Assembly: GCA_943354385.1 (NCBI GenBank)
Contig: CALRBR010000003.1
Coordinates: 1,926-65,925 of the forward strand
Source of the DNA: Candidatus Tayloriibacteriota bacterium
Lineage (GTDB): Bacteria > Patescibacteriota > Minisyncoccia > Phycocordibacterales > PALSA-1337
Direction of reading: 5' to 3'
DNA: 64,000 nt
The position numbers were made by a program, and so were the translations under genes. Under the pieces are notes generated by a model, which worked only from the letters and a program-made list of their open reading frames with translations, had not been told where the DNA came from and searched no databases. This document shows, in pieces, positions 10,938 to 64,000 of the stretch (position 1 is the first letter of the stretch; each line of letters begins with the position of its first letter).

Positions 10938-10976
10938 AACGGCTCAGTCCTTTTGGCTACAAAGGACTGAGCCGTT
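10938..10976. repeat. AACGGCT-stem palindromic hairpin (AACGGCTCAGTCCTTT-tggctac-AAAGGACTGAGCCGTT)
   Basis: 16-bp perfect stem 3' of the RhuM/Doc gene. Shares the AACGGCTCAGT...ACTGAGCCGTT base with the hairpin at 14472. Confidence 0.6.
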
Positions 10977-11125
10977 AAACCCATACAGCCCTTGTTTTGC
11001 AACGTTTTTCGCCCAGAGGTTATCCAATCGACAAAGAAAATGGTAGACTAAATCTGACTCTTTCGACTTTGGAAAAGATAGCTAGATTGCTCATAATTTA
11101 GAACAGTGAGTCGATGTGAAAAAAT

Positions 11126-11473: not shown

Positions 11474-11474
11474 A

Positions 11475-13499
11475 ATGTCAGACATAGCCACCTTTTCATT
11501 TAATGCAACTGGGGTAGAAAAAATACGTAATTATAAATATGGCAGTGATTGGCCGGTTGTTTACTTGATAGAAAATGGGAAAGAACTATATGTTGGAGAA
11601 ACAATCAGAGCGTATGGTAGAACAAAACAGCATTTAGAAAACGAAGCCAGAAAACATTTAAAGATGATTCATGTTATTTCTGACGACGAATTTAATAAAT
11701 CCGCAACTCTGGATACAGAATCTTCACTAATTGAGTATTTGGTCGCAGACGGTAAATATATTCTTCAGAATGGAAATGGAGGTTTACAAAACCATGATTA
11801 TTTTGACCGTGAAAGATACAGGGGTAAATTTGAGTTATTGTGGAAGAAATTGCAGGATTTAAATATTGCCAGTAAAGATTTACTACAGATTCGTAATAGT
11901 GATATTTTTAAATACTCACCGTACAAAACCCTCACGGATGATCAGTATTTAATTGCCTCAAAACTTCTAGAACAGTTTAAGGAGAATAAAATACAGACCT
12001 ATATTATTCATGGAGGTCCTGGTACTGGAAAAACAATTCTTGCCACATTTCTTATTAAGCAATTGATTGAAGCAGGTAAAAAGGATGTTGCTCTTGTTAT
12101 AGCAATGGTCTCTTTGCGAAAGACTTTAAAAAAAGTATTCAGAGATATTCCAGGTTTAAGTCCAAATATGGTGATTGGACCTAATGAGGTTGTAAACCAG
12201 AAATATGACATATTGATTGTTGATGAAACACATCGTTTACACCAGAGAAGAAATATTCCAAATTATGGAACTTTTGACAAAACCAATAGGGCTTTAGGTT
12301 TAGGAAATGAAGGCACAGAACTTGATTGGGTACTTAAATCCGCGAATCAAGTAGTACTTTTTTATGATGAAAAACAATCCGTTAGACCTTCAGATATATC
12401 AATTAACAAAGTTTTAGAATCAAAACCAATCAGTTTTGAACTTAAAACACAGATGCGAGTGAAAGGAGGGGAAAAGTATCTTGAATTTATAGATAAACTT
12501 CTTGAGAATGATGGAAATATTAAGGCTAATTTTTCAGATTATGATTTTAAGATTTGCGATGATCTTGCGGAGATGGTTTCGGATATAAAGAAACAAGATA
12601 AAATTCATTCTTTGTCTCGTTTGGTTGCTGGATATGCTTGGAAATGGATATCCAGAACAAATAATGGAATGCCAGATATTGTAATAGGGGATGTTAAGTT
12701 ATTTTGGAATAGCAAGATTCATGATTGGGTAAATTCCTCAAATGCTATAAATGAAGTGGGCTGTATACATACCATTCAAGGATACGATTTAAACTACGCG
12801 GGAGTAATTATAGGACCTGAAATGCTGTATGATCCAATCACAAAAAAGATTATTGTTGATAAGTCAAAATATCTAGATTCGAATGGTCACAATGGGGTGA
12901 ACGATCCAGAGGAACTTAAGAGGTATATAGTTAATATTTATAAAACACTACTTACACGGGGGATACTTGGAACATATATTTATATTGTTGATGAAAACCT
13001 GAGAAACTATTTCAAGGAAAAATTTGGACAAGAAACTAGTAAAAAAATGGATTTTAAAGAAAATTATAATGAAAGGAAAATAGTTTCTCCTTTCACAATG
13101 GAAATGATCAGAGTTCCTTTGGTTGGCTCTGCGCCGTGTGGAAATCCGCTTCTTGGCGAAGAAAACATTGAGGAATATATTGAAGTAGAAAAAAGCAAAA
13201 TTAAACCTGGCTATAACTATTTTATTCTTCGAGCTACTGGAGACTCGATGAACCTTGTTGGAATAAATGACGGGGATCTGGTGCTCTGTCGCCAGCAATT
13301 AAAGGCTGATACCGGCAACAGGGTTGTTGCTTTATTGGGTGATAATGTAACGATAAAAGAGTACGGTCCCCGCGAGGATGGAGTGCGTCTTCTTTTGCCC
13401 AAGAGCTCAAATAAGGATCATATGCCCATAACCCCAGGCGAAGGAGATAGTGTGCAAGGTATTGTACAGGAGGTGCTTAAAGGAGTAGACGAAGAATAA
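11475..13499 (+). CDS. GIY-YIG nuclease + DUF2075-type P-loop ATPase (SF1-helicase-related, Nhi-like) + C-terminal LexA/UmuD-like S24 peptidase domain fusion protein
   Basis: 674 aa from the ATG at 11475; the ORF-track N-terminal extension overlaps mazG. GIY-YIG (VVYLIENGKELYVGET..R..E..N). Walker A HGGPGTGKT, Walker B ILIVDETHRL. S24 hallmarks: candidate cleavage site SAPCG/NPLL, nucleophile Ser in GDSM, catalytic Lys in VTIKEY, plus a GINDGDLVL..VVA strand pattern as in LexA. Confidence 0.8.
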   Translation: MSDIATFSFNATGVEKIRNYKYGSDWPVVYLIENGKELYVGETIRAYGRTKQHLENEARKHLKMIHVISDDEFNKSATLDTESSLIEYLVADGKYILQNGNGGLQNHDYFDRERYRGKFELLWKKLQDLNIASKDLLQIRNSDIFKYSPYKTLTDDQYLIASKLLEQFKENKIQTYIIHGGPGTGKTILATFLIKQLIEAGKKDVALVIAMVSLRKTLKKVFRDIPGLSPNMVIGPNEVVNQKYDILIVDETHRLHQRRNIPNYGTFDKTNRALGLGNEGTELDWVLKSANQVVLFYDEKQSVRPSDISINKVLESKPISFELKTQMRVKGGEKYLEFIDKLLENDGNIKANFSDYDFKICDDLAEMVSDIKKQDKIHSLSRLVAGYAWKWISRTNNGMPDIVIGDVKLFWNSKIHDWVNSSNAINEVGCIHTIQGYDLNYAGVIIGPEMLYDPITKKIIVDKSKYLDSNGHNGVNDPEELKRYIVNIYKTLLTRGILGTYIYIVDENLRNYFKEKFGQETSKKMDFKENYNERKIVSPFTMEMIRVPLVGSAPCGNPLLGEENIEEYIEVEKSKIKPGYNYFILRATGDSMNLVGINDGDLVLCRQQLKADTGNRVVALLGDNVTIKEYGPREDGVRLLLPKSSNKDHMPITPGEGDSVQGIVQEVLKGVDEE

Positions 13500-43475: not shown

Positions 43476-43931
43476 ATGTCCCTACAACAAACCATCAAAG
43501 ACCAAATGAAGCCAGCTATGATCGCAAAAGATGCTGTAAGACTAGGTGTGATCCGAGGACTGATGGCTGGATTTATCAACGAGCTCGTAGCAAAAAACAA
43601 AAGCCCGCAAGACGCTCTCATCGATGAAGAAACTATAGCTGTGGTCAAAAAGGCAGTCAAACAGCGCAAAGATTCTATCGATCAATTTACTAAAGGCGGA
43701 CGAGAAGATCTTGCAATAGATGAAAAAGCTGAGCTTGCTATACTTGAAACATTCCTCCCAAAAATGATGGGGCAGGATGAGATAAAAAAGATTGCTGAAG
43801 TCCTAAAAATCAAAATGGCTGTGACTGATAAAGCCAAGATGGGTCAGTTTATTGGGGTTGTAATGAAAGAGACAAAGGGCCAAGCAGATGGTATGGATGT
43901 TAAAGCAGTAGTTGAAAGTTTGTTTCAGTAG
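43476..43931 (+). CDS. yqeY: GatB/YqeY domain protein
   Basis: 151 aa. The MSLQQTIKDQMKPAMIAKDAVRLGVIRGLMA..KNK pattern is typical of YqeY. Confidence 0.8.
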   Translation: MSLQQTIKDQMKPAMIAKDAVRLGVIRGLMAGFINELVAKNKSPQDALIDEETIAVVKKAVKQRKDSIDQFTKGGREDLAIDEKAELAILETFLPKMMGQDEIKKIAEVLKIKMAVTDKAKMGQFIGVVMKETKGQADGMDVKAVVESLFQ

Positions 43932-44231
43932 TATTTCTGGATGTTGTAAAATTTACATAGACATGAAATAAAAAGCAGAGTAACGCTCTGTTTTTTATGG
44001 ATGCACATATTGAAAAAGTGCATGTAATGGAAAAATGATGGTGGCGTGAAGGAAATGGAAATTGAACACTCTCCAGACAAAGTTGTGGGAGGGTTCAATA
44101 TTTTTTCTTATGAGTACATCTTCAAAAATTTAGAAAGTCTTTCAAGTCCTCTCTCGCAAAACGGTTCCCACTTTGCTTTGGCACAAAATACAGGTTGTTT
44201 TTCTTTCAGTGTTCTACCCGTAAGGATATTC

Positions 44232-44305
44232 ACGCAGGTGGCGGAACAATGCGGACGAGGTTTAGCGAAAACTATTTTTTGGGTTGAGAAAGTGGGGACA
44301 CTTTT
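44232..44305 (+). repeat. Partial (third) copy of the repeat family that flanks the R-M cassette
   Basis: GCAGGTGGCGGAACAATGCGGACGAGGTTTAGCGAAAACTATTTTTTGGG closely matches 58795-58850 (GCAGGTGGCGGAACAATGTGGACGAAGTTTTGGCAAAACTATTTTTTGGG). Similarity decays afterwards. Confidence 0.65.
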
Positions 44306-44348
44306 GCAAGGCCTTTTGAGCTTGTACTCAAGCCCAAATTGGATGGGA

Positions 44349-44558
44349 TTATTTTTTCTTCCAAAATTGGAATTTATCAAAAAACAAAATTCGTACACCT
44401 AATAATTCAAGACCAATAATTGCTAACCATGAACCTGGTGTGAGTGGCGTAAAGAAAGCGGCAAATCCAATAAAAAACAAAATTGCCCCTACTACCTTTT
44501 TGATTTTCGGTTTACTATGAATATATTTTTTAATGGTTTTGAGCAGATTTATACACAT
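44349..44558 (-). CDS. Possible small membrane protein downstream of the P-type ATPase
   Basis: 69 aa. Lys-rich N-terminus plus 2 hydrophobic helices. No family recognised. Confidence 0.35.
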   Translation of the reverse strand: MCINLLKTIKKYIHSKPKIKKVVGAILFFIGFAAFFTPLTPGSWLAIIGLELLGVRILFFDKFQFWKKK

Positions 44559-47240
44559 TTAAGCTAACTTTCTTCGGTAAAAGAATTTGCGTATTTCTTC
44601 AGCAGGGACAATCAATATTGCCACTGGTATGAGTATCATCCAATCGGAAAGATTGAGGGGAACTGTTTTCAAGTATGTATTCATGATTGGAGTATAAATA
44701 GCAAGTAATTGTAGTGAGATAACAGTGACAGTGGCCCACACTAAATATTTGTTAGAAAACGGGTTCATTTTGAAGATAGATTTGCTATCGGATCTACAAT
44801 TCCATGCATTAAACCATTGGAACGCAGCTAAGACGGTAAGTGATATTGTCCAAGCTTTTGCCAAGTCCGCCTCGTAGTAATTTTTAAAAAGAAAGAGTGT
44901 TCCGACAGCCATCACCAAGGACATAAGCACCATTCTCTTTGCCATCAGTTTATCAACGAAATATTTTTTCGGCTTTTCAAACTTGCCGTCGAGCAAATGA
45001 TGCTCTTTGGGTTCCATGGCCAGCGACACATCAAGAAAACCATCTGTGACAAAATTCAGCCAGATAATCTGTGCCGCTAATATTGGTAGTGGATATCCCA
45101 AAATAAGCGCACCTATAATAGTAAAAACTTCTCCCATGCTTGTTGAAAAGAGATACAAAATGACTTTCTTGATAGTCTTATAAATACTGCGACCTTCTTC
45201 AATCGCCGAAACAATACTTTCTAAATTGTCGTCGAGAAGAACGATATCAGAGGCCTCTTTTGCTACTTCGGTCCCGATGTTACCCATTGCCACACCAATA
45301 TCGGCGGCAACTAGCGATGGCGCATCATTTACCCCATCTCCAGTCATGGCCACCACTTCACCGCGAGCGCGATATGCCCCGATGATTTTCATCTTATGTT
45401 CTGGGTTCACTCGAGCAAACACTGAAATCGTTTTGAGTCTTTCTGATAACTCCCCACCGGACATGCCTTCAATTTCCAACCCAGTGAGCACTTCATCACC
45501 TTCATGCCAGATACCTACTTCTTTGGCTATGGCATGGGCGTTTATATTGTGGTCACCGGTAATCATCACTACTTTTACTCCAGCGGATTCCACCTTCTTT
45601 ATAGCCATGGCCGCTTCCGTCCTTGTGGCATCTTTCATTCCATAGAAGCCCCCGAAAGAAAGATTTTTTATCTTTTCCGGCTTGAGAGTTTTGCCTGCAT
45701 CAGGATCGATGGCAAAAGCGACCACACGCAAACCCTCCTGCGACATTTTATAAAAAACTGACTTAAGATTTTTTCGTTCATCATTTGTGAGTTCTTTCCG
45801 TTTGCCGTTCAACCAGACAGTCTCAGATAATTCCAAAATAATTTCAGGGGCACCGACGGTAATTAAAAAATTCTTGCCTTCGACAGCTCGAAGCATTGCG
45901 TGATATTTGAGCCGGTAGTCAAATGGAATTTCTCCAATAACAGCAGACTCTCTCTCAAGGTCTTCTTTGTGAAAACCAAGCTTTTGCGAGAGTACAAGCA
46001 TTGCTGCTTCGGTCGGGTCTCCGCTGATCCGGAACCGTTTATCCTCTTCGGAATACATGACCCTGGCACTAGAACAAAAAGCACCAGTCTTTCCGGCGAG
46101 TAAAAGTTCCGGATGATTAACGGCGTCAATGATACGGCCATTCAAAATGATATTACCTTTTGACTCATATCCAATACCCCCAACATCAAACATTGTTTCT
46201 CCCACATACACCTTTCGAATCACCAGCTCGTTTTTGGTGATCGTACCGGTTTTATCAACAGCAATGATACTGACTTGCCCTAAAGCCTCGACCGCCTGAA
46301 GTTTCTTGACCAGTGCGTTGCGCTTACTCATTCGTCGCACGCCCATGGCGAGAATAAGAGTCACCACAATAGGTAGTCCTTCCGGTATAATTGATACCGA
46401 CAGAGAAACAACTGTAGTGAACATATCTTTGACTGGTTTGCCAACAGCGATGCCCAGGGTAAAGATCACCAAAGAAACAACGGCTACTGTAATTATGATG
46501 AGGCGTGAAAGATACCTAATATTGCCTTTAAGAGGAATCTCGGTATTGACCAGTGCAATCTTGCTTGCAATTGCGCCTATAGTAGTTTGCGATCCTGTTG
46601 CGATAACAACAGCACGACCATTACCAGCGACTATATTCGTTCCTTTGTACGCAATATTTTTATACTTTCCGAGCGTTTCTACATTGACCTCCTGTTCACT
46701 AGTTTTATGTACTGGCTCAGACTCTCCGGTTAGGGCCGCCTCATCAATCTTAAGATTATGGGAAACAATGACTCGCGCGTCAGCCGGAATTTTCTCTCCT
46801 TCTTGGAGTATGAGAATATCCCCAGGTACCAATTCCGTATCCGGAATGATGATCTCCTTGTCGTCCCGAAGTACAGTGGCTTTGGTCTCAACGAATTTCT
46901 TAAGAGCCAGCAATGTGTTCTGCGCTTTGCCTTCCTGAATTGTCCCAACGATAGCGTTAAAAAGAAGGACAGCGAGAATGATCGATCCATCAACCACTTC
47001 TCCGATTACAAACACCACGACACTTGCGGCGACAAGTATATAAATGAGAGGACTTTGGAATTGACGCAGGAAAATAATAAAAATGCTGTCTACCTTTGCT
47101 TCCGGTAGTTTATTTTGTCCATATAGTTTCAGTCGAAGTGCCACCTCTGCGTGACTTAAGCCGCGCTCGCTTGAGTGCAATTCTTCAATAACGACTATTG
47201 ATGATTTTGTGTGCCATAAAATTTGTCGTGTTTTTGCCAT
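44559..47240 (-). CDS. Cation-transporting P-type ATPase (type II, Ca2+/Mg2+-ATPase-like)
   Basis: 893 aa. Phosphorylation motif DKTGTIT. TGES motif (LTGESEPV). Hinge MTGDGVNDAPSL. 10 TM segments. Confidence 0.9.
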   Translation of the reverse strand: MAKTRQILWHTKSSIVVIEELHSSERGLSHAEVALRLKLYGQNKLPEAKVDSIFIIFLRQFQSPLIYILVAASVVVFVIGEVVDGSIILAVLLFNAIVGTIQEGKAQNTLLALKKFVETKATVLRDDKEIIIPDTELVPGDILILQEGEKIPADARVIVSHNLKIDEAALTGESEPVHKTSEQEVNVETLGKYKNIAYKGTNIVAGNGRAVVIATGSQTTIGAIASKIALVNTEIPLKGNIRYLSRLIIITVAVVSLVIFTLGIAVGKPVKDMFTTVVSLSVSIIPEGLPIVVTLILAMGVRRMSKRNALVKKLQAVEALGQVSIIAVDKTGTITKNELVIRKVYVGETMFDVGGIGYESKGNIILNGRIIDAVNHPELLLAGKTGAFCSSARVMYSEEDKRFRISGDPTEAAMLVLSQKLGFHKEDLERESAVIGEIPFDYRLKYHAMLRAVEGKNFLITVGAPEIILELSETVWLNGKRKELTNDERKNLKSVFYKMSQEGLRVVAFAIDPDAGKTLKPEKIKNLSFGGFYGMKDATRTEAAMAIKKVESAGVKVVMITGDHNINAHAIAKEVGIWHEGDEVLTGLEIEGMSGGELSERLKTISVFARVNPEHKMKIIGAYRARGEVVAMTGDGVNDAPSLVAADIGVAMGNIGTEVAKEASDIVLLDDNLESIVSAIEEGRSIYKTIKKVILYLFSTSMGEVFTIIGALILGYPLPILAAQIIWLNFVTDGFLDVSLAMEPKEHHLLDGKFEKPKKYFVDKLMAKRMVLMSLVMAVGTLFLFKNYYEADLAKAWTISLTVLAAFQWFNAWNCRSDSKSIFKMNPFSNKYLVWATVTVISLQLLAIYTPIMNTYLKTVPLNLSDWMILIPVAILIVPAEEIRKFFYRRKLA

Positions 47241-54100: not shown

Positions 54101-55579
54101 CTACTTCTCCAAATCCAATGTCTCATCTATCCTTATCTGTGCCACAAACTCTGGGACATGGGAGACGAGAATCATCGCGCCCTTGTATTCAGAGAGAGCC
54201 TTTGCAATCAGAGGAAGGTGGCGAAAGTTAATATGGTTGGTCGGCTCGTCAAGAATAAGGAAACCTGGTTTCTCGAGGACTAGGCGAGCAAAAGCTACCA
54301 AACCTTTTTGCCCTTCAGAAAGACTTCCTATTTTTGTGTCGATCACATCTGAGGTAATGAGAAATCCTGATGCGACGGCACGCACTCGTTCCTGATCAAA
54401 TCCCCCAGCCGCGGTCATCAGTGACTTGAGTACTGTCTCATCAAAATTAAGTGTTGAAAAATCTTGTCTATAGTAGCCCACCTTCACTCCGTCAGTTATT
54501 TTAGTACCTGGAGCCGTACCTCGTGCCATAGCCTCAAGCAAAGTACTTTTACCGATACCGTTTGGACCACGCAAAAGTAAATGTTGTCCTCGTTTAAGAG
54601 AAATGTGGGATTTCCGGGCTACCGGCTTATGATTTTTACTTATTACAGTATATGAGGAAATGTTGACCAGCTCGCCGAGCATATCTTGGTGTGGAATTTC
54701 AAAAGGTCTGATAGTGCGATCCTCTTTGCGTACATCCACTTTTTCATCCTCAAGCTCTTCAGCTTTTTCTCGCATTCTTTTTGCCACCAAACGCATTTGG
54801 CCTCCCTTTTGAGCAAAAAAGTTGGCTTTGTCTTTGTTGTCTTGAATCTCTTTTGCGAGCTGGGCGTTTTTACGATTTTCTTTTTCAATACGAGCAGAAA
54901 TTTCTTTTACTACATCAAAATAATTACCGTGATACTGCTCGACTTTGCGAGTATGAATATCGAGATAAAGCACACCATCAGTAAACGCATTAAGAAAGTC
55001 TGCGTCATGAGAAATCACCACCACCGTCTTTTTATAGCCAGTTAAAAATTGTGTGAGGTGCTCGATACCGGCTTTGTCGAGGTTGTTGGTCGGCTCATCG
55101 AGAAGGAGGAGGTCTGGGTCTTGGATCAGGGCGGAAGCAAGGAGGAGACGTGCTTGCTGACCGCCTGAAAAGCTTTTAACGATTCGCTCGTGCATTTTGG
55201 CATGACCTTTGAGATTGACCACTTCCAGTACAGCATCAATACGAGGATCAATATCATACACTTTCTCAGTAAAACATTTTTCGAAAAATGCTCGGACAGT
55301 AAGTTCTAGGTCTGGCCGAGGAATGACCTGACGAGAGAGTGCTATCGTTACACCGTTCGTAAGATTTACTTTTCCTGATTCTGGCTTCAGCGCTTTAGTG
55401 ATGAGCTGAAAGATGGTGCTTTTGCCGGCACCGTTCTGACCCATAAATGTAATCTTTGTGCCACGACGAATGACAAAATTAGCCTCATCTAAAATAGGCT
55501 TGTTTTGTCCATAATCAAAGGATGTTTTTTCAAACGAAACGATGCTATCGGTTTTTGCCATGAGGTAGTACTGTAACAC
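54101..55579 (-). CDS. ABC-F family ATPase (tandem ABC domains, no TMD)
   Basis: 492 aa. Two Walker A motifs (GQNGAGKST, GPNGIGKST), two signature motifs (FSGGQQARL, LSEGQKGLV) and an inter-domain linker. Confidence 0.85.
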   Translation of the reverse strand: MLQYYLMAKTDSIVSFEKTSFDYGQNKPILDEANFVIRRGTKITFMGQNGAGKSTIFQLITKALKPESGKVNLTNGVTIALSRQVIPRPDLELTVRAFFEKCFTEKVYDIDPRIDAVLEVVNLKGHAKMHERIVKSFSGGQQARLLLASALIQDPDLLLLDEPTNNLDKAGIEHLTQFLTGYKKTVVVISHDADFLNAFTDGVLYLDIHTRKVEQYHGNYFDVVKEISARIEKENRKNAQLAKEIQDNKDKANFFAQKGGQMRLVAKRMREKAEELEDEKVDVRKEDRTIRPFEIPHQDMLGELVNISSYTVISKNHKPVARKSHISLKRGQHLLLRGPNGIGKSTLLEAMARGTAPGTKITDGVKVGYYRQDFSTLNFDETVLKSLMTAAGGFDQERVRAVASGFLITSDVIDTKIGSLSEGQKGLVAFARLVLEKPGFLILDEPTNHINFRHLPLIAKALSEYKGAMILVSHVPEFVAQIRIDETLDLEK

Positions 55580-55646
55580 GAGAATCGGAACGAATCAAGA
55601 TTTACTATTCACGATTTATGAATGGGAATGAAAACAAACGACTTAT

Positions 55647-55692
55647 ACAAATTAAAATAGCGCGACCTTTCGGTCGCGCTATTTTAATTTGT
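55647..55692. terminator. Long bidirectional terminator hairpin (CAAATTAAAATAGCGCGACC-tttc-GGTCGCGCTATTTTAATTTG)
   Basis: About 20-bp perfect stem. Lies 3' of the minus-strand csp and upstream of the ABC-F gene. Confidence 0.7.
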
Positions 55693-55711
55693 ATTCGTAC
55701 TTACGTACTAT

Positions 55712-55915
55712 TTACGCAACTACTGATACGTTGATCGCTGAAGGGCCTTTTGGTCCGTCACCGATTTCAAATGCAACTTTCATACCCTCTTTTAGAGCGT
55801 CGAAAGCAACACCTTTAAGATCCTTTGAATGGAAGAAAAGGTCCTTTGCTTCGCCTTCGCGTGCAATGAATCCAAATCCTCGATCTGTAAGAGTCTTGAT
55901 TGTTCCTGACATCAT
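55712..55915 (-). CDS. cspA: Cold-shock protein (CspA family)
   Basis: 67 aa. RNP motifs GFGFI and FFH. Confidence 0.9.
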   Translation of the reverse strand: MMSGTIKTLTDRGFGFIAREGEAKDLFFHSKDLKGVAFDALKEGMKVAFEIGDGPKGPSAINVSVVA

Positions 55916-56152
55916 GTGAATATTCTATTAGTTATACTAAGAAACTCGACTGCGTTTCTGTGCCTCTAGGCACCTATATATCAAGTATATACTATAAGTA
56001 TTATTTTGTCAAGCTTTTTGTATAAGATTTTCAATATTCACTTACAGGAATAGTAAGTACTGACAATATCAGAATGGCCCTACAGAGAATATATAAAACA
56101 AAAAGCCCGCACCCTCTGGCGCGCGCTTTTTTTGTTTGACTACTTTTAAAAA

Positions 56153-56410
56153 TTATGAGAGGTGCTTTGAAATATGTCCCGCCATCTTCATCATGTGCAC
56201 TGTCTTTTCCCCACCAAAAACCTTTTTTAACTTTTCATCATTGTTAATCATGCGCTTATCTTTTGGATCCTGAAGATTATTACCCTTGATGTAAACCCAG
56301 AGAGCTTTGACAACTTCTGATCGAGCCATTGGGCCCTTGCCAACAACAGCGGCTAGGTCAGCGCTCACAGTCAGCGGCTTCATAAATGCAGATGTAGCTT
56401 TTGGTGCCAT
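56153..56410 (-). CDS. SWIB/MDM2 domain protein
   Basis: 85 aa. PLTVSADLAAVVGKGPMARSEVVKALWVYIKGNNLQDPKDKRMINNDEKLKKVFG is the canonical SWIB domain pattern. Confidence 0.75.
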   Translation of the reverse strand: MAPKATSAFMKPLTVSADLAAVVGKGPMARSEVVKALWVYIKGNNLQDPKDKRMINNDEKLKKVFGGEKTVHMMKMAGHISKHLS

Positions 56411-56473
56411 ATATGTTTAATTATTTAATAACAAATCAATTGTATCACAGTGCAGGCGACTTGGGAAGCAGGG

Positions 56474-57214
56474 CTACTTTTTTATAAAACCCTCAAGGGC
56501 TTTCAGAGCCTCTACCGGTACCATGTACACTACGGTATTGCTTTGATCAGAAGACATGTCATTTATCGACTGGAGTGTTCTCAAATGAAGCGCTCCGGGT
56601 GTTTTTGCAAGCATTTCTGCCGCTTTTGCGATATTTTCTGATGCCGCAAGCTCCCCCTCGGAATTGATAATAACCGCTCGCTTTTCTCGTTCCGCTTCTG
56701 CTTGCTTACCGATAGTACGCTCCATATCTGCTGGCAAACTCACATCTTTCAATTCAACATTTTGAACTTTTAAACCCCAGGCATCAGTTTCCTTGTCGAC
56801 AATCTCCCTTATTCTATCCGCAATCTTATCTCGACTTGAAAGTAGCTCGTCGAGCGTGACCTCCCCTACAATATTTCGCATTGTTGTCTGTGCATATTGA
56901 GAAATCGCGTATTTAAAGTCTTCTACTTCAACTATCGCTTTGTTTGCATCACTTACTTTATAATAAATAACTGCATTTACTTTTACAGTCACATTATCTC
57001 GTGTGATGGCATTTTGATCTGGCACGTCAACTGCCTTTGTACGTATGTCCACCTTTTGGTACCCCTGAACTACAGGTAAAACAAGTCTCCAGCCAGGTTC
57101 CATAATCGAAGTAAACCTACCAAAGGTAAATTTTACCCCTCTTTCATATTGATTGATTTGGCGGATACTGATTAGTATTAAAAACAGAACAATAGCTAAA
57201 ATTGTATACAACAT
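56474..57214 (-). CDS. SPFH/band-7 (stomatin/prohibitin-like) membrane protein
   Basis: 246 aa. N-terminal TM helix then SPFH domain (RGVKFTFGRF..NVTVKVNAVIYYKV). Confidence 0.85.
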   Translation of the reverse strand: MLYTILAIVLFLILISIRQINQYERGVKFTFGRFTSIMEPGWRLVLPVVQGYQKVDIRTKAVDVPDQNAITRDNVTVKVNAVIYYKVSDANKAIVEVEDFKYAISQYAQTTMRNIVGEVTLDELLSSRDKIADRIREIVDKETDAWGLKVQNVELKDVSLPADMERTIGKQAEAEREKRAVIINSEGELAASENIAKAAEMLAKTPGALHLRTLQSINDMSSDQSNTVVYMVPVEALKALEGFIKK

Positions 57215-57272
57215 AATATGGTGTTAATAATTAAATCTGCTTAGTGTGAATACTAGCACAAGTTATTACAAA

Positions 57273-57533
57273 TTAGAATTCTTCTTTTTTCTGACTCATC
57301 AGACTTATTTTTCTCTCTCTCGACCAGCTTTGTAACTCCATTTCCCTCTTTCGTGCCTCAGAAAACGTTTTGTAGGTTTCAAAATACTTGAGTACGACAG
57401 GTCGGCGGATTTTAGTATAATGTGCGCCTGTTTTAGAGTTGTTGTGTTGATGTACCCGCTTTTCCAAATCATTTGTAAAGCCTGTATAAAAAGTCTTGTC
57501 ATTGCACTCGAGAATGTAGGTGTAGTAAAGCAT
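57273..57533 (-). CDS. GIY-YIG nuclease family protein (UPF0213/YhbQ-like)
   Basis: 86 aa. YTYILECNDKTFYTGFTNDLEKRVHQHN..E. Confidence 0.8.
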   Translation of the reverse strand: MLYYTYILECNDKTFYTGFTNDLEKRVHQHNNSKTGAHYTKIRRPVVLKYFETYKTFSEARKREMELQSWSRERKISLMSQKKEEF

Positions 57534-58156
57534 TATTTTTTTGTGACTATGAATTTGATTTTCTCGACAAGCTCAGGAAAAATCTCCTGATTGAAATGCT
57601 GGCGATTCTCAATTAAAATAGCTTCTGCCTCTGGAAGAGCTTTTTGATATTTATAAAAATTAGACACAGGAACAACCGAGTCGTCTGAGCTGTGGTAAAT
57701 ATAAATGTTTTGAATTTGTTCTGATAGTTTATTCAAATTGGTAGGTAAAATAAAGTCAACCAACGAATCTTCAAAGTCTGCATCATCATACGGAGCCGAG
57801 ATCATAAAAACTGCTTTGATCTTCTTTGAAACAGTTTCCTCAGACAAATATTTTGCCAGGAAAATACCACCCAGAGAATGTCCGATCAAAATACATCCTT
57901 CCTCGAGAAAAGGTGCTATTTTATCAAACCAAATTTTCCATTCGAGGTATTTGGCATTCTTTTTGTTGGGCATTTGCGGAAGTATCACCTGGAAGTTATT
58001 ACCCAGCTTGTCTGCGAGACCTGTTTTCCAGTCTTCTTGCATCAGTCGTGTAAAGTCCAGTTTTTTCGCCTGCAAATTTTCCAGATATTCTTCATAAGTA
58101 TCAAATGTCTCCCCTCCGTGTAGTACAATAACTTGAGTTTTCATAAGATATTTCAA
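57533..58156 (-). CDS. Alpha/beta hydrolase (YdeN/RBBP9-like serine hydrolase)
   Basis: 207 aa. GHSLGG nucleophile elbow. Start at 58156 or 58141. Confidence 0.7.
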   Translation of the reverse strand: MKYLMKTQVIVLHGGETFDTYEEYLENLQAKKLDFTRLMQEDWKTGLADKLGNNFQVILPQMPNKKNAKYLEWKIWFDKIAPFLEEGCILIGHSLGGIFLAKYLSEETVSKKIKAVFMISAPYDDADFEDSLVDFILPTNLNKLSEQIQNIYIYHSSDDSVVPVSNFYKYQKALPEAEAILIENRQHFNQEIFPELVEKIKFIVTKK

Positions 58157-58774
58157 GAATACAATATCTCTGGGTATTTAACAACAGTTTTTATAAGGAA
58201 ATGGTCGCTGACTGAGCAATCTTGTTGATATAAAAAATCGCCTGCGGGACTTGGACCATGAGTACATTTATCTCCCGCGACTAAATTTTGCTACCCGCAG
58301 AATTTGTCTGGACACCGCCTAACATTTTTATTTACTAATAAAAAAGGGCTCCGGAGTTCGATTCCAAGCGAAGGTAGTACCCACCACTTTCTTCCCGCAT
58401 AAAAATACCTTTGGTATTTTGGCTGCGGGACTTGGACGCTTCGCTATCTCACTCGCCCTCCGTGTGTCGGGCTCTTTAGAAACCCACGGTTTCTAACACT
58501 CGAGTACTCGTTGTTTTCCTCCACGGGGAACTCCCGTTCCCCGACCACTCCCCGTTCGATTCCAAGTCCCTCCGTAAAACGGCGCTTTGCGCGTTTGGCT
58601 GTGTCTCCTGAACAAAATCCGAACTTTTTACCAACAAAATCCCGATGTGGAATGAATCGTTCCGCCACTGCCTCGCTTCACTCGGCAACACCAAAGAAAA
58701 ATGTTCCTTGCTTTCCTGATTTGGCGGTGGTGAAATTTTTCTTGAAAAAGGAAAGGACATTTTTCTTCGGTGTT

Positions 58775-58967
58775 CTGCCCTCAAGGTCTCGGGCAGGTGG
58801 CGGAACAATGTGGACGAAGTTTTGGCAAAACTATTTTTTGGGGAAAGGATTTGCCAAAACTTCGGCTCATTTGTTTTTGAATTCGGATGTCGCAAATGGA
58901 AAAAGAGGGGTTTGGGGAGGAATTTTCCATTTGCTCCTCTTTTTGTTTTGGCGAAATTCGGGGCGGA
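58775..58967 (+). repeat. Left terminal inverted repeat of the R-M cassette (repeat family copy B)
   Basis: 58802-58967 is the reverse complement of 63834-64000, with 3 mismatches in ~166 bp. Confidence 0.85.
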
Positions 58968-58995
58968 CAAAAAACAGAAAAATCAAATCCAATTT

Positions 58996-61038
58996 TCATT
59001 CTTTCACTATTTTTATAGAAAATTGTATATTTTCGGCTTGATAATTCAAACGTTCACATATTTTTGCTAAAAATGCGATTATTCCATTAGCACTCATATT
59101 ACCCTCTACGACTTCATTCGTGCGAAATTCTAGTGAGTGTCTAAGCGGTTTGTCTTTATTAAAATACCATTTGAATTCTGAACTATTCTGAATTTCAGTA
59201 AATTGTGTCGGAGAATATTCGTATAAGAAATTGCAAGTTTTAGTTAGTAAATCTCTCCAATTTTTTAATTCAATTCCTTTTTCATCTTCTTCAAAATATA
59301 AATGAGAGGGCTTGCTTCGACTAAAACTATCTTCACTGGTTAAATCAAATAACTGTTCTTCTGGAATTGGTTTTGAATATGTTGTTTTTGGGTATGGCCA
59401 AATGTCTTTAGCATTTTTGACTAGATCTTTTGCTCTTTCCACTATTTTTTCTTCATTCCAAATTGTTAAACCCTCAAGTTTATAATTTAATTTTAGTCTA
59501 CTAACTTGAAAATCAATCTGTTGCTTATCTTCAAAAGAACTGTTTGATAATTCAGTATTTTTTGCAGTTAAACTTAAATTTCCAAGAGTGTGTAGATATT
59601 TATTATGTATTTCTTGCCAATTTTCTCCTAGTTTATTTTTCCAATCCTTTGTTAAAGTTTGAGGCATTATATGTTCAACAGTTAATTCATCTAAACTGAC
59701 GGGATAAGCGGAGTGGAAATTTTCTAAAGATTCTAACAAGAAATTTCTATTTTTTGATTGAAGTCTATATATCTCTTTATTTATAAGTGCACTTTCAAAT
59801 TCTTCATTGTTTGGAAATCTCTGAGAGACTCTTTTTTCAAGTAGAATATAACTCAAAATATTAATATATTGCTCTTTCCACGACTCTTCTTTTTTAATAT
59901 CTCTAGCTAGGGAAATAAATAACTTATTCAATCCTTGCGTAGTATTGTCTACTAAAATCTTTCTAAAAGCATAACTTTCTATGATAAGAAGGATATCTTT
60001 TGTAGTTTCTTCCGTTATATTTTTAGAATCTAGCTCATTAAAAACATCCAACAAGTACGGATAACAAACTGTGAACTCTATTTTATTTATTTTTAACAGT
60101 TCTTTATTGATGGCACTATTGGGATGATTTTGAATTTGTGTTAACCAGCTATAAATTCCAGCAAAATATAATAAGTCTTTCAAGACACCTTCCTTGTTTT
60201 TATAGAAGTTATCTGTTGATAATTTTTTAAAAACAGAGTAAACATCATCTTTTTTAACCCAAATCCTTAGTTTAAAAATTAAATAATTTCTTACAAATTC
60301 CGCTATATCACCAGTTGATTTTTCAATTTCAACCCAGTATTTCTTATACATTTGCTCTTGTTGGAGCGGTTCTAAATCCATTAGGATATAATTGCGTATC
60401 AAATCACCAGCGGTAAGATCTACTCCAGTAGAATTTAAGCTTTCAAAAATCAATTGGGGATCGTCTTGCCCCCTCACCAAATCTATTAAAACTATTTTTA
60501 ATCTTCTAAATGCCTCGAATAGTTGTTGAGGAGTTAATGCTTCAGATGAAATTTTATCAAAAAAGAAATTATAGTTAGTAACTATATTAGAATTAGCATT
60601 TAAGTTATTGGAATTTTCAAACAGATTTTCAAAATTCTCCTTATCTTGTTTGTTTGGCTTTAATCTAATTCTTTTATCTTTTTCGGGAGAATATTTATTA
60701 ACAAGAAAATCTAATAACTGCTCTATTAAAATATTTTCTTCATTATTTTTTGTTTCTTTTGTCTTTAAAAACTTGTGTAAGGCGATCAACATGATCGAAA
60801 CCGTTGTTAGTCTTTGTTGCCCATCAATTATGGTATATTCCTCAAATCCGCTACCAATTGTAACAAGAGTACCCAAAAAATGATCACTCCTAGTATTGTT
60901 ATTCAGGTCTACTAAATCATCCCATAGCTTCTGACAATTTATTCTTGTCCAAGCATAATCTCTTTGGTATACAGGTATAGCAAAACTTTTCCCTGTGCCT
61001 TCTAAGAATTGATAAATTGGTAATTGTTGAACTTGCAT
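58996..61038 (-). CDS. GmrSD-like type IV (modification-dependent) restriction enzyme, DUF262 + DUF1524 architecture
   Basis: 680 aa. N-terminal DUF262/ParB-like NTPase with IPVYQRDYAW and DGQQRLTT motifs. C-terminal DUF1524 His-Me finger (ELTVEHIMPQT..W..LGNLSL). Confidence 0.8.
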   Translation of the reverse strand: MQVQQLPIYQFLEGTGKSFAIPVYQRDYAWTRINCQKLWDDLVDLNNNTRSDHFLGTLVTIGSGFEEYTIIDGQQRLTTVSIMLIALHKFLKTKETKNNEENILIEQLLDFLVNKYSPEKDKRIRLKPNKQDKENFENLFENSNNLNANSNIVTNYNFFFDKISSEALTPQQLFEAFRRLKIVLIDLVRGQDDPQLIFESLNSTGVDLTAGDLIRNYILMDLEPLQQEQMYKKYWVEIEKSTGDIAEFVRNYLIFKLRIWVKKDDVYSVFKKLSTDNFYKNKEGVLKDLLYFAGIYSWLTQIQNHPNSAINKELLKINKIEFTVCYPYLLDVFNELDSKNITEETTKDILLIIESYAFRKILVDNTTQGLNKLFISLARDIKKEESWKEQYINILSYILLEKRVSQRFPNNEEFESALINKEIYRLQSKNRNFLLESLENFHSAYPVSLDELTVEHIMPQTLTKDWKNKLGENWQEIHNKYLHTLGNLSLTAKNTELSNSSFEDKQQIDFQVSRLKLNYKLEGLTIWNEEKIVERAKDLVKNAKDIWPYPKTTYSKPIPEEQLFDLTSEDSFSRSKPSHLYFEEDEKGIELKNWRDLLTKTCNFLYEYSPTQFTEIQNSSEFKWYFNKDKPLRHSLEFRTNEVVEGNMSANGIIAFLAKICERLNYQAENIQFSIKIVKE

Positions 61039-61087
61039 AATAACTACATATTAGCATTTTTAGCCCTTAATATCAACGATTCTTAAT

Positions 61088-61837
61088 TTATTTTTGAAAC
61101 ACAAAAAGATGTTCGTGCATTATCAGTAAGAAGTTTGATTCCTTTGATTTTGTGACCCAAAAACCTGTTGCTTTGCAATTAAACTGTCTTTTGATTATGT
61201 CCTCTTTTAAAACAAAACCTACATCTAAAAACTTCTGCATTACCTTAAATGCAAGAGGTTGATACATTTTATTTCTGCGAGTGTCTCCCATTAAAATTGC
61301 ACAGTATTTTCCTTTCTTTAAAACTCGAAACAACTCTTTGGCAACTTTTTCTATTTCATCAACAAAAACGTCTATGTCGTGTATTCCCGAAAGATCTTCC
61401 TTAATCTTACCCTCACTGTATTTTATTATGTCTGCATAGGGAGGATGAGTTAAAACAAAATCAATTTCATTGTCTTTAATAAAGCTCATATCTCTCGCAT
61501 CACATTTCACGATCCGTTGTTTCGCTTTATTATCAACCTCAAATTCAAGAGATTTTTTAGTTCTCTCTAGTGCTTCTTCATTTACATCAATACAAGTAAT
61601 ATGGCGATTTAGTATCTTTGCTTCTATTGCCGTAGTACCTCCACCGATCATGCAATCGAGCAAGTGATCTTTTTCTTTTGAATAACGCAAAATAAGATTG
61701 CGGGCTACTTCGGGCGACCAGTTTCCGCGCCAGTCAGAAGTATGCGTTGCCCAATTACCACGACGAGGAAAAGCCCATACGGTTGTACACTCTAGTTCAA
61801 ATTCATCTGGGTTAAGTTTCATCTCTATTTCAGACAT
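61088..61837 (-). CDS. SAM-dependent DNA methyltransferase (amino-MTase; motif I before motif IV)
   Basis: 249 aa. AdoMet motif LLDCMIGGGTTAIEA. Catalytic (D/H)PPY-type motif DFVLTHPPYADII. Its start abuts the REase stop (61837/61838). Confidence 0.75.
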   Translation of the reverse strand: MSEIEMKLNPDEFELECTTVWAFPRRGNWATHTSDWRGNWSPEVARNLILRYSKEKDHLLDCMIGGGTTAIEAKILNRHITCIDVNEEALERTKKSLEFEVDNKAKQRIVKCDARDMSFIKDNEIDFVLTHPPYADIIKYSEGKIKEDLSGIHDIDVFVDEIEKVAKELFRVLKKGKYCAILMGDTRRNKMYQPLAFKVMQKFLDVGFVLKEDIIKRQFNCKATGFWVTKSKESNFLLIMHEHLFVFQK

Positions 61838-62437
61838 TTAGACGATTTTATATTTTTTAGATTTAACTAATTTAATAGAATCGTAACTATTTTTATCTGT
61901 AAACTTATATTGCCAAATTAAATACTCATCAATTCTTTTTTCAAAAAACAATAGGAAAACTTCTTTTTTTGTATGTTCTGTCCATTGTCTGTATGGATAA
62001 TATAATTGCCTAATTATTGTATTTTTTGTAGATGAATTTTTAGCTTCTATTAGAACAATTTTATTTTTTCCTTCATAACCAGCATCAACTTCTGTCTGAA
62101 CCCCCTTCGTTTCAATTGTGGTATTACCAATTTTATAACTAAACTCCGGTGTATATTTTCTCCCTCTGATTGCTAGCACAAGCGAAGGATCGTCCATGAA
62201 TGTTCTAATGAGACTTGAAGCATAGGCAAAATCAAGATGTTGCATCTCAGAATTTCCAATTTTTGCTGTGTCTAAATCAAAATCGAGCTTGGTATTATAA
62301 ATTTCAGCTTCACTTTTAATTTCAGGAATATCAACATATCCCTCGGCTTTTACAAGAACATATTGACCATTTTTTACTGGCAATAAGACTAGCCCATTTT
62401 CTTTCATTATTACTGGAACACTTTCTCTTGTATCCAT
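61838..62437 (-). CDS. Putative type II restriction endonuclease (PD-(D/E)xK)
   Basis: 199 aa. Candidate catalytic core ..TEVDAGYEGKNKIVLIEAKN.. (D...E-A-K). Sandwiched between two MTase genes. Confidence 0.5.
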   Translation of the reverse strand: MDTRESVPVIMKENGLVLLPVKNGQYVLVKAEGYVDIPEIKSEAEIYNTKLDFDLDTAKIGNSEMQHLDFAYASSLIRTFMDDPSLVLAIRGRKYTPEFSYKIGNTTIETKGVQTEVDAGYEGKNKIVLIEAKNSSTKNTIIRQLYYPYRQWTEHTKKEVFLLFFEKRIDEYLIWQYKFTDKNSYDSIKLVKSKKYKIV

Positions 62438-62600
62438 CTTGCATAAAATCCGAACTTCTTTTTCTGTTGTACTTTTAAAATCTTGAACTGATTTTTTTAT
62501 ATCTTTTGCAGATAAATAAAATGGTGATTTAGAAAAATTATGTTCTAAAATTTTGTTATCCTTAAATATTTTTGTCCAAGAATTATTGTTAGCCTTAAAT

Positions 62601-63557
62601 TTAATAATTAGTTACCAATACCTCTGTAATTTTTCCTCTTTTAGAAGCGTCGGAGTTAATGGCACGACCCGCTTGTACTTTTGTAATACGGACACCTTTA
62701 ATCTTGGAATAAATTTTGTTAATAAATGCAGTGTCGGAATTTGAAAGCATAACAAAACAACCTCGTTTGTGTAGTTCTACAAATGTATCTCTTAGTTCGG
62801 TTTGCTCTTTATCTAAAAATGCCTCGCTGGTGTATGAAGTAAATGACGCGGTTTTACTTACTGGATAATATGGTGGATCAAAATAAACAAAATCTCCTTT
62901 CTTTGCTTTTTTAAGCACTTCTCTGTAATCCTGTTTTATTATCTCAACATTTTTCAATGCTTTTGATGCTTTTCTAAGATTATTTTCATCACAAATAAGA
63001 GGGTTTGTATATTTACCAAACGGAACATTAAACCCACCTTTGCTGTTCACGCGATACATACCATTGAAACAAGTTCTGTTCAGATAGATAAAACGAGAGG
63101 CAGTATTTAAATCAGAAAGCTTTTCTGGATTTTGTGCCCGTATTTTTAGAAAATATTCCTTGTCTAGTTTATGTTTTTTGAGTGATTTTATTAGACTTTC
63201 AACATCACTTTTAATTACATTGTAAGTGATAACAAGTTCATTGTTCAAATCAGAAAGATAAGCTGTTTCAGGAAGAAGATCAAAGAATACTGCACCTCCG
63301 CCGACAAATGGTTCAAAATATTTTCCGCTTTGTGGATCAAATTTTTCTGGTGGATAAAGATTCATTAAACGAAATTGTGCGAGGAGTTGTCTTTTTCCAC
63401 CAACCCACTTAACAAAAGGTTTTGGTTTTTCTGCAATAATGCGGGAAGCGTCTTCAATGAGTTTTGTTTTATCTGCAAGCGAAAAAACCCTGTAAGCATA
63501 AATCGAATTTATGTTGAAGGTTTCTTTAATTTCTAAAATTGCTTGGTCTTTTGTCAT
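62601..63557 (-). CDS. Dam-family (D12 class, alpha) N6-adenine DNA methyltransferase
   Basis: 318 aa. KWVGGKRQLL (Dam motif). Motif I YFEPFVGGGAVFF. Motif IV VYFDPPYYP. Confidence 0.85.
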   Translation of the reverse strand: MTKDQAILEIKETFNINSIYAYRVFSLADKTKLIEDASRIIAEKPKPFVKWVGGKRQLLAQFRLMNLYPPEKFDPQSGKYFEPFVGGGAVFFDLLPETAYLSDLNNELVITYNVIKSDVESLIKSLKKHKLDKEYFLKIRAQNPEKLSDLNTASRFIYLNRTCFNGMYRVNSKGGFNVPFGKYTNPLICDENNLRKASKALKNVEIIKQDYREVLKKAKKGDFVYFDPPYYPVSKTASFTSYTSEAFLDKEQTELRDTFVELHKRGCFVMLSNSDTAFINKIYSKIKGVRITKVQAGRAINSDASKRGKITEVLVTNY

Positions 63558-63561
63558 ATGT

Positions 63562-63774
63562 CTATTTTAACAATTCATCGCTCGAAACACCAAGGGCTTT
63601 GGCAATATTAGTAATGGTTGAAAGTGTCGGGTTTGTCTTCCCATTTTCAATATTGCTTATAAAACTTCGGCTAACGCCGAGGTTTCGGACAATATCGCCC
63701 TGTGTTATGCCTTTTTCTGTTCGGATACGCTTTAAATTCTTGCCTAATTTCGCAGATTCGCTTTTCATATCCAC
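63562..63774 (-). CDS. R-M controller (C) protein, XRE-family HTH
   Basis: 70 aa. HTH_3 (LKRIRTEKGITQGDIVRNLGVSRSFISNIENGK). First gene of the cassette, 4 nt upstream of the Dam-like MTase. Confidence 0.75.
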   Translation of the reverse strand: MDMKSESAKLGKNLKRIRTEKGITQGDIVRNLGVSRSFISNIENGKTNPTLSTITNIAKALGVSSDELLK

Positions 63775-63825
63775 AGTATAGCACTAACATTTACATTATA
63801 CACCAATATTATAGTATAATGTAAT

Positions 63826-64000
63826 AGTATGATTTCCGCCCCGAATTTCGCCAAAACAAAAAGAGGAGCAAATGGAAAATTCCTCCCCAAACCCCTCCTT
63901 TTCCATTTGCGACATCCGAATTCAAAAACAAATGAGCCGAAGTTTTGGCAAATCCTTTCCCCAAATAATAGTTTTGCCAAAACTTCGTCCGCATTGTTCC
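63826..64000 (-). repeat. Right terminal inverted repeat of the R-M cassette (copy C, truncated by the window end)
   Basis: Reverse complement matches 58802-58967. Confidence 0.85.

Follow-up and report, generated by a model that had tools for sequence, protein, structure and literature searches.

What kind of defence system is encoded towards the right end of a 64,000-nucleotide stretch of a Candidatus Tayloriibacteriota genome (contig CALRBR010000003.1, positions 1,926 to 65,925; hereafter the window), and by what route do such systems travel? A preliminary description, made from the letters alone, had seen at 58996–63774 a controller-protein gene, two methylases flanking a single endonuclease, and a GmrSD-like type IV enzyme, and had read them as one mobile restriction-modification (R-M) unit. 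The region is a horizontally acquired, AT-rich defence cassette in the chromosome of a groundwater member of the Patescibacteria, or Candidate Phyla Radiation (CPR). Repeat-flanked cassettes of this kind form a large family; many are headed by a helix-turn-helix (HTH) gene and carry defence cargo, and they are often located just downstream of tRNA-Gln. The account that we favour, and consider rather likely as a whole, is that of a foreign, repeat-bounded cassette with an HTH head, a DpnII-like core of two methylases (M1 and M2) and an endonuclease (R) that probably act on GATC, a lost start codon in R, and an exchangeable GmrSD module. The broad outline of the preliminary description, in which a regulator heads a foreign unit that carries an R-M system and a type IV enzyme, is retained here; the length and family of R, the class of M2, and the membership of GmrSD and of the regulator in the system are revised.

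Layout and boundaries of the locus

The list of open reading frames (ORFs) together with profile searches placed five predicted genes where they had been described, all on the minus strand, and the domain assignments agreed. In order of transcription these are the HTH regulator (63562–63774; HTH_3), the Dam-family methylase M1 of 318 amino acids (62601–63557; MethyltransfD12/TIGR00571), the DUF6996+DUF6997 endonuclease candidate R (61838–62596, 252 codons, with an ATG-delimited ORF of 199 amino acids at 61838–62437), the permuted methylase M2 of 249 amino acids (61088–61837; N6_N4_Mtase), and the 680-residue GmrSD (58996–61038; GmrSD_N and GmrSD_C). The intergenic gaps are 4 nt between the regulator and M1, 4 nt between M1 and the ancestral start of R, 0 nt between R and M2, and 49 nt between M2 and GmrSD. 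The motifs KWVGGK, DPPY, GGGTT, and HPPY that had been reported were all found in the translations. The GC content of the cassette is 0.27–0.37, compared with 0.37–0.49 in the surrounding window, and the nearest relatives of R belong to CPR lineages; members of the protein clusters that hold the exact GmrSD and M1 sequences carry a Patescibacteria annotation.

The cassette is bracketed by an inverted repeat of 166 nt and 98% identity (58802–58967 and 63835–64000) that was absent from the preliminary description; the right, head-side arm reaches the end of the window, which falls within it. Comparison loci, which are genome or metagenome contigs, are given L-numbers here, and the full extent of the left, tail-side arm (58595–58972; outer terminus TTGGCTGTGTCTCCTGAACAAAATCC, inner end GAATTCGGGGCGGACAAAA) was set by its 97% identity to the arms of one of them, L002 (Parcubacteria GW2011_GWA2_38_13b). 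By the same comparison the arms are 365–385 nt long, and the arms of L002 themselves hold a perfect inverted repeat of 340 nt. A second contig, L084, extends only 39 nt beyond the right end of the window before its assembly breaks, and contigs that encode exactly the proteins of the window end at the repeat.

A family of repeat-flanked cassettes

The arm terminus (GCTGTGTCTCCTGAACAAAATCC) is shared by a family of cassettes: the terminal 23-mer of the arm recurs without mismatch at least 120 times in metagenome contigs, and no copy of the terminus was found in viral contigs. Most copies share only the first 45–50 nt and several share the whole arm at 92–98% identity; arm lengths across copies vary from 98 to 385 nt, and copies have so far come only from groundwater-type CPR metagenomes. 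A tRNA lies within 300 nt outside 13 of 85 termini, and in all 13 cases it is tRNA-Gln with its 3' end facing the arm. The window carries a trace of the same arrangement, in that a fragment at 58554–58575 on the plus strand aligns to the tRNA-Gln 3' end of L123, together with the spacer and terminus that follow, and its 3' end faces the left arm; ARAGORN found no intact tRNA at this position. A C-like HTH gene, reading inward from 230–440 nt inside the terminus, is present in about 22 of 83 copies. Defence genes dominate the cargo of the family, including methylases (m5C, N6/N4, EcoRI-type, and Eco57I-type), nucleases (HNH, GmrSD_N, and MvaI/BcnI, HaeIII, HinP1I, and Tsp45I endonucleases), a PLD-SNF2 protein, LexA-S24 fusions, and AAA_15/21 ATPases, with no transposase or integrase among the 25 commonest cargo families. 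A search of the literature on horizontal gene transfer and methyltransferases in CPR bacteria returned no description of the cassette. An Rfam scan of the whole window at gathering thresholds reported three tRNAs only, and a permissive scan of the arm gave sub-threshold, miRNA-type chance matches and no known RNA.

Several observations concern the repeats themselves and their surroundings. A third, partial arm copy, about 82% identical and corresponding to the middle of the arm (CAGGTGGCGGAACAATG.GGACGA..), is present at 44198–44283 within the intergenic region 43931–44559; the arm sequence thus belongs to a small family of repeats dispersed in this genome. The stretch between a hydrolase gene and the left arm (58160–58594) is non-coding and relatively GC-rich. 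Within it, ctgcgggacttggac is repeated directly (58242 and 58414) and a T-arm-like motif, gttcgattccaag, occurs twice (58356 and 58553); these features may be what is left of earlier insertions or of copies of tRNA-Gln. In other loci a second conserved module (..GCGACGCTCCGAATTTTGGCGAAAACGGCGATTCTATTTTTTG) often stands immediately outside the 23-nt terminus (L086, L093, L094, L097, L106, L113, L124, L133, L141, L149, and L159), and the repeats are therefore mosaics of short modules whose true boundary may lie further out in some copies.

The regulator at the head of the cassette

The regulator has 70 residues if read from its GTG, or 68 from the ATG at 63768, and scores 62.9 bits against HTH_3. 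A C-box palindrome was to be expected upstream of 63774 if this were a controller (C) protein, and a candidate operator does lie there, at 63791–63824 on the minus strand: a palindrome picked out in the sequence (TTACATTATAC-N12-GTATAATGTAA, running from 63824 to 63791) that overlaps TATAAT-like -10 elements. It is conserved in L002 and L123, and more diverged HTH homologues are accompanied by different palindromes at the same place, as is expected of autoregulated controller proteins. The regulator is predicted to control its own synthesis and to time expression of the cassette after transfer.

Whether it belongs to the R-M system is a separate matter. Across the comparison set for R, 80 genomes from CPR bacteria, DPANN archaea, Bacteroidota, Planctomycetota, and others, the regulator gene is present at only 4 R loci and absent from 76. 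Two features tell against equating it with a C protein. It directly precedes M1, so that a methylase gene follows the C-like protein and R comes third, and generic models fit it as well as the dedicated one: the PADLOC model Control_protein PDLC03665 gives 47 bits and HTH_VI 56 bits, with many generic models for HTH proteins or antitoxins in the same range. The regulator looks like one that acts at the level of the cassette. The proposal that a C protein heads the unit was therefore right as to position and operator candidate, but the gene is a feature of the repeat-bounded cassette family and not of the R-M system.

GmrSD as an exchangeable tail module

The GmrSD protein matches GmrSD_N at 120 bits and GmrSD_C at 87 bits, and its best PADLOC model is PDLC02693 at 458 bits. 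When judged by the motif definitions published for GmrSD and BrxU (PMC8565348), it keeps DGQQR at residue 72, IFES(LN) near 198, EHIMP at 455, and GNLSL...N at 486–494, that is, both the NTPase and the His-Me/HNH motifs, the possible loss of whose catalytic residues had been a reservation about this DUF262/DUF1524 protein.

Its partnership with the R-M genes is a local one. No GmrSD gene is found at any of the 80 other R loci. The first four genes of L002, from the C-like regulator through M1 and R to M2, are 92% identical to those of the window at the nucleotide level, and three other ORFs occupy exactly the position of GmrSD; homology between the two loci ends about 8 nt before the GmrSD ATG and resumes about 25 nt before the inner end of the arm. 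The first of these breakpoints falls inside a promoter-like element, TTGATA-N17-TAATAT with an extended TG, located by consensus scan at 61048–61076 on the minus strand immediately upstream of GmrSD. From the other side, homology between the window and L205 and L206 starts at 61056, within this same junction, and these two loci carry a 96%-identical GmrSD with the same arm behind a different cargo consisting of an HTH gene, a 462-residue protein of no known family, and a pair of D12 methylases, of which one is a LexA/S24 fusion. The scan for promoters and terminators gave no excess over shuffled sequence (26 against 21.1±4.1 and 3 against 3.6±1.7), and only the GmrSD-proximal site was used from it, as a pointer. 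With its motifs intact and its own promoter-like junction, GmrSD reads as an exchangeable module plugged into a variable slot of the cassette. The idea that a mobile unit is shared by the R-M system and GmrSD accordingly stands as far as a foreign, repeat-bounded unit is concerned, while GmrSD itself is a swappable tail outside the conserved part.

The preliminary description had also argued that methylation by the cassette must be compatible with a modification-dependent nuclease. GmrSD is found beside adenine methylases both in the window and in L205/L206, and BrxU coexists with Dam and BREX m6A methylation (PMC8565348); by analogy, these contexts fit that argument. The enzyme would attack phage DNA with modified cytosines and tolerate the adenine methylation of its own cassette.

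Two of the alternative cargoes deserve mention in their own right. The fusion of a LexA DNA-binding domain, an S24 peptidase, and a D12 methylase has 501 residues (L205 7370–8875, and also L206 2779–4284) and adjoins the second D12 methylase; LexA/S24 domains occur in 4 of 122 cargo ORFs, and such fusions with methylases suggest damage-responsive control of methylation. In L002 the cargo that takes the place of GmrSD (9557–11747) comprises an SDH/ClpP-like serine protease of 343 residues and proteins of 215 and 172 residues. PADLOC gave no match to any of them, and Pfam matched the protease domain alone; this cargo may represent a defence module that is not yet described.

How the cassettes move

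Mobility is seen in its outcome, since the same arms occur in different contexts and modules have been swapped between them; the mechanism is less certain. No gene for a recombinase was found in the cassettes. Recombination at a tRNA-Gln-linked hotspot, using the conserved arms and junctions, could account for the exchange of modules, a possibility that we would put at a little below even. The alternative is a non-autonomous transposon, whose terminal inverted repeats would be the repeats of about 370 nt and whose transposase, encoded elsewhere, would act in trans. Such an element would likewise be bounded by inverted repeats, lack a recombinase of its own, and appear in different genomic contexts, as the elements of the window and of L002 do: the latter sits between tRNA-Gln/dnaX and rny, neither of which is present in the window. 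The conservation of the terminal 45–50 nt over at least 120 copies with divergent interiors would also suit a transposon, and in L002 a direct repeat of 8 bp (GTATTTAA) to 14 bp abuts both ends. No such flanking repeat is found, however, in L086, L094, or L102, and the arms vary in length from 98 to 385 nt. The site bias is strong, every nearby tRNA being tRNA-Gln, the swapping of internal modules at conserved junctions fits homologous or site-specific exchange better, and neither a transposase among the common cargo families nor a copy in viral contigs is seen. On this evidence a transposon is unlikely, and target-site duplication was discarded as a general feature of the family.

Recombination through the arms is the reading with which we proceed, and three observations temper any claim of mobility. 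Among termini with at least 2.5 kb of interior, an inverted partner arm could be detected for only 11 of 47 (delimiting cassettes of 1.6–6.1 kb); the flanking direct repeat is confined to L002; and neither an empty site nor a homologue of the L002 flanks was found among the loci.

R as a candidate endonuclease family

Because the 199-residue ORF covered only part of its profiles, R was translated upstream. R matches the Pfam profiles DUF6996 and DUF6997; the shorter ORF holds DUF6997 and the tail of DUF6996 and matches the PADLOC REase_II model PDLC03513. Residues D171, E184, and K186 are invariant in 31 R sequences. An AlphaFold2 (AF2) model (mean predicted local distance difference test, pLDDT, 80.5; predicted template-modelling score, pTM, 0.78) shows a core in the order alpha-beta-beta-beta-alpha-beta, the aspartate being placed on core strand two and ExK on core strand three; these residues lie on consecutive strands, 167–175 and 179–186, between helices 115–134 and 195–206. 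Foldseek ranked the Cas4-family ACE1, SSO0001, RecU, the RecB/AddA nuclease domains, and Nt.BspD6I among the best PDB matches of the model, all of them weak (E 5e-3 or worse, TM 0.2–0.26), and sequence searches found no relative in the PDB. The motif and topology described for a PD-(D/E)xK-like enzyme are thus present, and R is a candidate restriction endonuclease of that type from an uncharacterised family. Every source that supplies a name calls the family hypothetical, and a literature search found no paper on DUF6996/DUF6997.

Membership in the DpnII/MboI family was considered and rejected. R has no match to the Pfam DpnII profile PF04556, matching only DUF6996 and DUF6997, and has no BLASTP similarity to R.LlaDCHI, which itself matches PF04556 at 289 bits.

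Stronger evidence for a restriction nuclease than either motif or model comes from genomic linkage, as a DNA methylase is encoded within 1.6 kb of R in 79 of the 80 genomes. R is accompanied by M1 and M2 together at 28 loci, by a DpnA-like enzyme alone at 25, by a DpnA-like enzyme and M1 at 16, by M1 alone at 6, and by M2 alone at 4; at the remaining locus, where R is near a contig end, no methylase is seen. Homologues on Firmicutes plasmids are longer (423–429 residues), with an added C-terminal DUF7226, and directly follow a DNA adenine methylase gene. The PGAP labels given to some of these long forms (L082, L083, and plasmid hits H6, H8, and H11), "translation elongation factor" or "AAA-associated domain-containing protein," look like misannotation. 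Homologues of R that are 67–77% identical also occur in metagenome-assembled genomes of Pacearchaeota and Woesearchaeota (L017, L025, and L032), some with a Dam-like methylase upstream, which suggests that the system has passed between CPR bacteria and DPANN archaea, unless the contigs were mis-binned.

The two methylases

M1 scores 293 bits against TIGR00571 (dam) and 235 bits over its full length against DpnM (2dpm), and shares 45% identity with M.LlaDCHIA, the adenine methylase of pSRQ700 (E 6e-86). It can be placed by these matches as a Dam-family (alpha-class, D12) N6-adenine methylase of the DpnM/LlaDCHIA type. It retains the hairpin FNGxYRVN...FNVP and the lysine of KW(x)GGK, which we take, from the structure of E. 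coli Dam bound to DNA, to be the residues that read GATC. An N-terminal extension of 45 residues (63423–63557) is absent from DpnM, E. coli Dam, and M.LlaDCHIA, and it falls outside the alignments of M1 to Bacteroidota homologues (about 86% coverage).

M2 matches N6_N4_Mtase at 78 bits (the Pfam cut-off being 26.7), and the PADLOC model MTase_II PDLC03376 over its full length at 301 bits, yet the order of its parts is unusual. Residues 13–94 match profile positions 136–220; residues 108–187 match the N-terminus of 2zie, and residues 47–92 the C-terminus of M.MboIIA; and residues 42–103 align to positions 196–255 of a DpnA-like enzyme. Motif I (GGGTT, residue 65) precedes motif IV (HPPY, residue 131). 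Across 32 homologues HPPY is invariant and D-x-x-GGGTT nearly so, and M2 would appear from this to be a circularly permuted relative of the beta-class N6/N4 methylases with its catalytic motifs intact. An assignment as a beta-class enzyme of the DpnA/LlaDCHIB kind, in which motif IV precedes motif I, was tried and failed, since M2 aligns to DpnA-like enzymes only as a permutation.

Weak matches of M2 to UPF0020/RMKL-like and TIGR01177 models, and the JGI label "tRNA G10 N-methylase Trm11" on some members of its cluster, raise the question of whether it is an RNA methyltransferase (of the Trm11/THUMP-less type) that stands beside R by chance. The margin over the Pfam cut-off and the full-length match to a DNA methylase model speak for a DNA enzyme. 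M2 also adjoins R at 32 of the 80 loci, typically from a few to about 30 nt from the R stop, and is the sole methylase with R in four genomes; a chance neighbour from RNA modification is highly improbable.

Specificity of the restriction-modification core

The tightly packed M1-R-M2 genes would form an operon in which both methylases modify one site, most probably GATC (as m6A), and R cuts that site when it is unmodified. GATC is the probable specificity to judge from homology. GmATC is the site methylated by LlaDCHIA, the relative of M1, and LlaDCHI and DpnII are related systems (PMC4132740). In sister loci, R is partnered by beta-class enzymes that share about 60% identity with LlaDCHIB, the second methylase of pSRQ700. 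In the DpnII system DpnM acts on duplex DNA and DpnA on the single strands that arise in transformation (PMC3573125); by analogy M2 may, more speculatively, serve a special substrate such as incoming single-stranded DNA.

The preliminary description had left open a DpnII/MboI/LlaDCHI-type system or a type IIS system, in which the site would be non-palindromic, M1 and M2 would methylate one strand apiece, and protection against R would require both. Two different amino-methyltransferases flanking one nuclease could well be arranged in this way; R has two domains, to which the long plasmid forms add DUF7226, and a separate recognition module is conceivable; and some Dam-family enzymes, such as FokI, do serve asymmetric sites. 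Yet in 35 of the 80 genomes R is accompanied by a single methylase type, be it DpnA-like (25), M1 (6), or M2 (4), which should be lethal if each enzyme protected only one strand. As R is found with any one of the three types alone, the methylases most likely protect the same site. M1 is, moreover, closest to the GATC enzymes DpnM and LlaDCHIA, and the alternative partners of R are those with 60% identity to LlaDCHIB. A division of labour of the type IIS kind is consequently improbable, and the layout is better compared with DpnII/LlaDCHI, with the exception of R, which is not of the DpnII/MboI family.

For the GATC assignment itself, some points weigh on the other side. Counts of short words give little guidance to the site: GATC is not avoided in the window, its observed-to-expected ratio being 0.88 outside the cassette and 1.01 inside, and among palindromic 4-mers none stands out except ACGT at 0.65. 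The assignment is drawn from methylase homology, and other members of the Dam family, including EcoRV, FokI, and NlaIII, have other sites.

Loss of the R start codon

The frame of R stays open up to 62611, and its upstream part encodes conserved-looking sequence, but the ancestral start codon at 62596–62594 reads AAG in the window; the first in-frame ATG, at 62437, corresponds to M54 and gives the product of 199 residues. The metagenome contig L001, which is 99.93% identical to window positions 55537–62768, has ATG at 62596–62594 and a 252-residue R. Five bases differ between the two over 7,232 nt, the change of ATG to AAG among them, and within the R frame there is one further change from the ATG allele, which is synonymous. 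The AAG allele recurs in L084, a contig from a different sample (2 mismatches in 4,320 nt, 99.95% identity), and it is therefore a real, segregating variant and not a read error.

The 199-residue ORF is a remnant of the 252-codon gene. The best 120 of 3,667 R homologues all have 251–253 residues; about 24 positions are invariant within residues 1–53, and M54 is itself an invariant internal residue; and the first 30 residues have pLDDT values of 82–96 in the AF2 model. In the AAG strain there is probably little or no full-length R, and restriction would be lost or weakened. Both methylases read as intact beside the AAG allele, and they may in effect be orphan methylases in this strain, in which methylation would continue while the sister population keeps the ATG allele. 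The suspicion that the 199-residue ORF might have no nuclease fold and the methylases be orphans hence applies in part, to the extent that the start of R is mutated; the nuclease motif and topology are there. Shortened or disrupted R ORFs, of 183–189 residues or with no intact ORF found, were also encountered in L023, L031, and L075 (and also in L014 and L016), and decay of R is not confined to the window.

It might nonetheless be that R is functional in the AAG strain and the R-M system complete and active, through weak initiation at AAG or at an in-frame ATT nearby (62605–62603), or through an active product that starts at M54; this counts against loss of restriction. The frame is otherwise undamaged apart from the synonymous change, the M1 stop lies 4 nt from the old R start, which would favour re-initiation by coupling, and the nuclease domain DUF6997 is entirely inside the 199-residue ORF. 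AAG is not, on the other hand, a recognised initiator in translation table 11, and a start at M54 would dispense with a segment that is rich in invariant positions and confidently folded and that is retained in all of the best 120 homologues. Loss of R with retention of the methylases is, besides, the usual route by which R-M systems decay. A functional R in this strain is quite unlikely, and loss or weakening of restriction is the reading that we retain.

Implications

Members of DUF6996/DUF6997 number in the thousands and are spread over CPR bacteria, DPANN archaea, Bacteroidota, and Firmicutes plasmids. Since the family is constantly paired with DpnM- and DpnA-type methylases, it is a strong candidate for a new family of endonucleases, probably specific for GATC. 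The ATG/AAG polymorphism offers a natural snapshot of an R-M system that is losing restriction and keeping methylation. CPR bacteria mostly lack CRISPR and are thought to depend on R-M systems; widespread repeat-flanked cassettes with swappable modules, often HTH-headed and linked to tRNA-Gln, would show how such tiny genomes trade defence genes. These findings extend current ideas and overturn none.

A more far-reaching proposal can be put forward tentatively. The repeats, the 45–50-nt terminus, and the HTH head may together mark an undescribed family of exchangeable defence cassettes in Patescibacteria, located just downstream of tRNA-Gln and lacking a recombinase of their own, in which whole cassettes as well as internal modules such as GmrSD are swapped by host recombination after uptake of DNA. 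The core would then be an analogue of DpnII with a new family of GATC endonuclease, and M2 would play the role of DpnA on incoming single strands, allowing exchange by transformation to be tolerated.

Comparison with known systems

R-M systems controlled by C proteins include PvuII, BamHI, AhdI, and Esp1396I. Like them, the cassette has a small XRE-type HTH gene at the operon head and a palindromic operator over TATAAT elements that varies together with the protein. It departs from them in that the regulator precedes the methylase gene instead of the endonuclease gene, and in that homologues of the regulator head unrelated cargos within the same repeat family.

With respect to mobility, mobile forms of R-M units are said to have been described by Furuta and colleagues in 2010, and mobile insertion cassettes and pdif modules are known as inverted-repeat cassettes without a transposase. 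The present family shares with these the placement of defence or accessory genes between inverted repeats, the lack of a recombinase of its own, varied contexts, and the exchange of modules. Its arms are much longer (about 100–385 nt) and mosaic, and it differs further in its association with the 3' side of tRNA-Gln, its frequent HTH head gene, and its lack of a consistent target duplication.

The tail module has the same two domains as GmrSD, BrxU, and SspE, with the NTPase (IFES, DGQQR) and His-Me finger (EHIMP, GN..N) motifs, and as with BrxU it is embedded beside a methylating defence system. Its relation to the solved members is very distant, only about 95 N-terminal residues aligning to SspE, and unlike them it has an extra tail of about 130 residues beyond the models.

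The core, finally, is most readily compared with DpnII, LlaDCHI, and MboI, as all pair one endonuclease, within a single operon, with a Dam-family alpha-class methylase and another amino-methyltransferase, and sister R loci even carry a true second methylase of the DpnA/LlaDCHIB type at 60% identity. In contrast to those systems, the endonuclease here is a DUF6996/DUF6997 protein and not PF04556, M2 is a circularly permuted enzyme of 249 residues with HPPY, and the gene order is M1-R-M2, where LlaDCHI has the order M-M-R. By analogy, M1-R-M2 would resemble DpnII/LlaDCHI in its working, while its second methylase and its endonuclease both set it outside that family.

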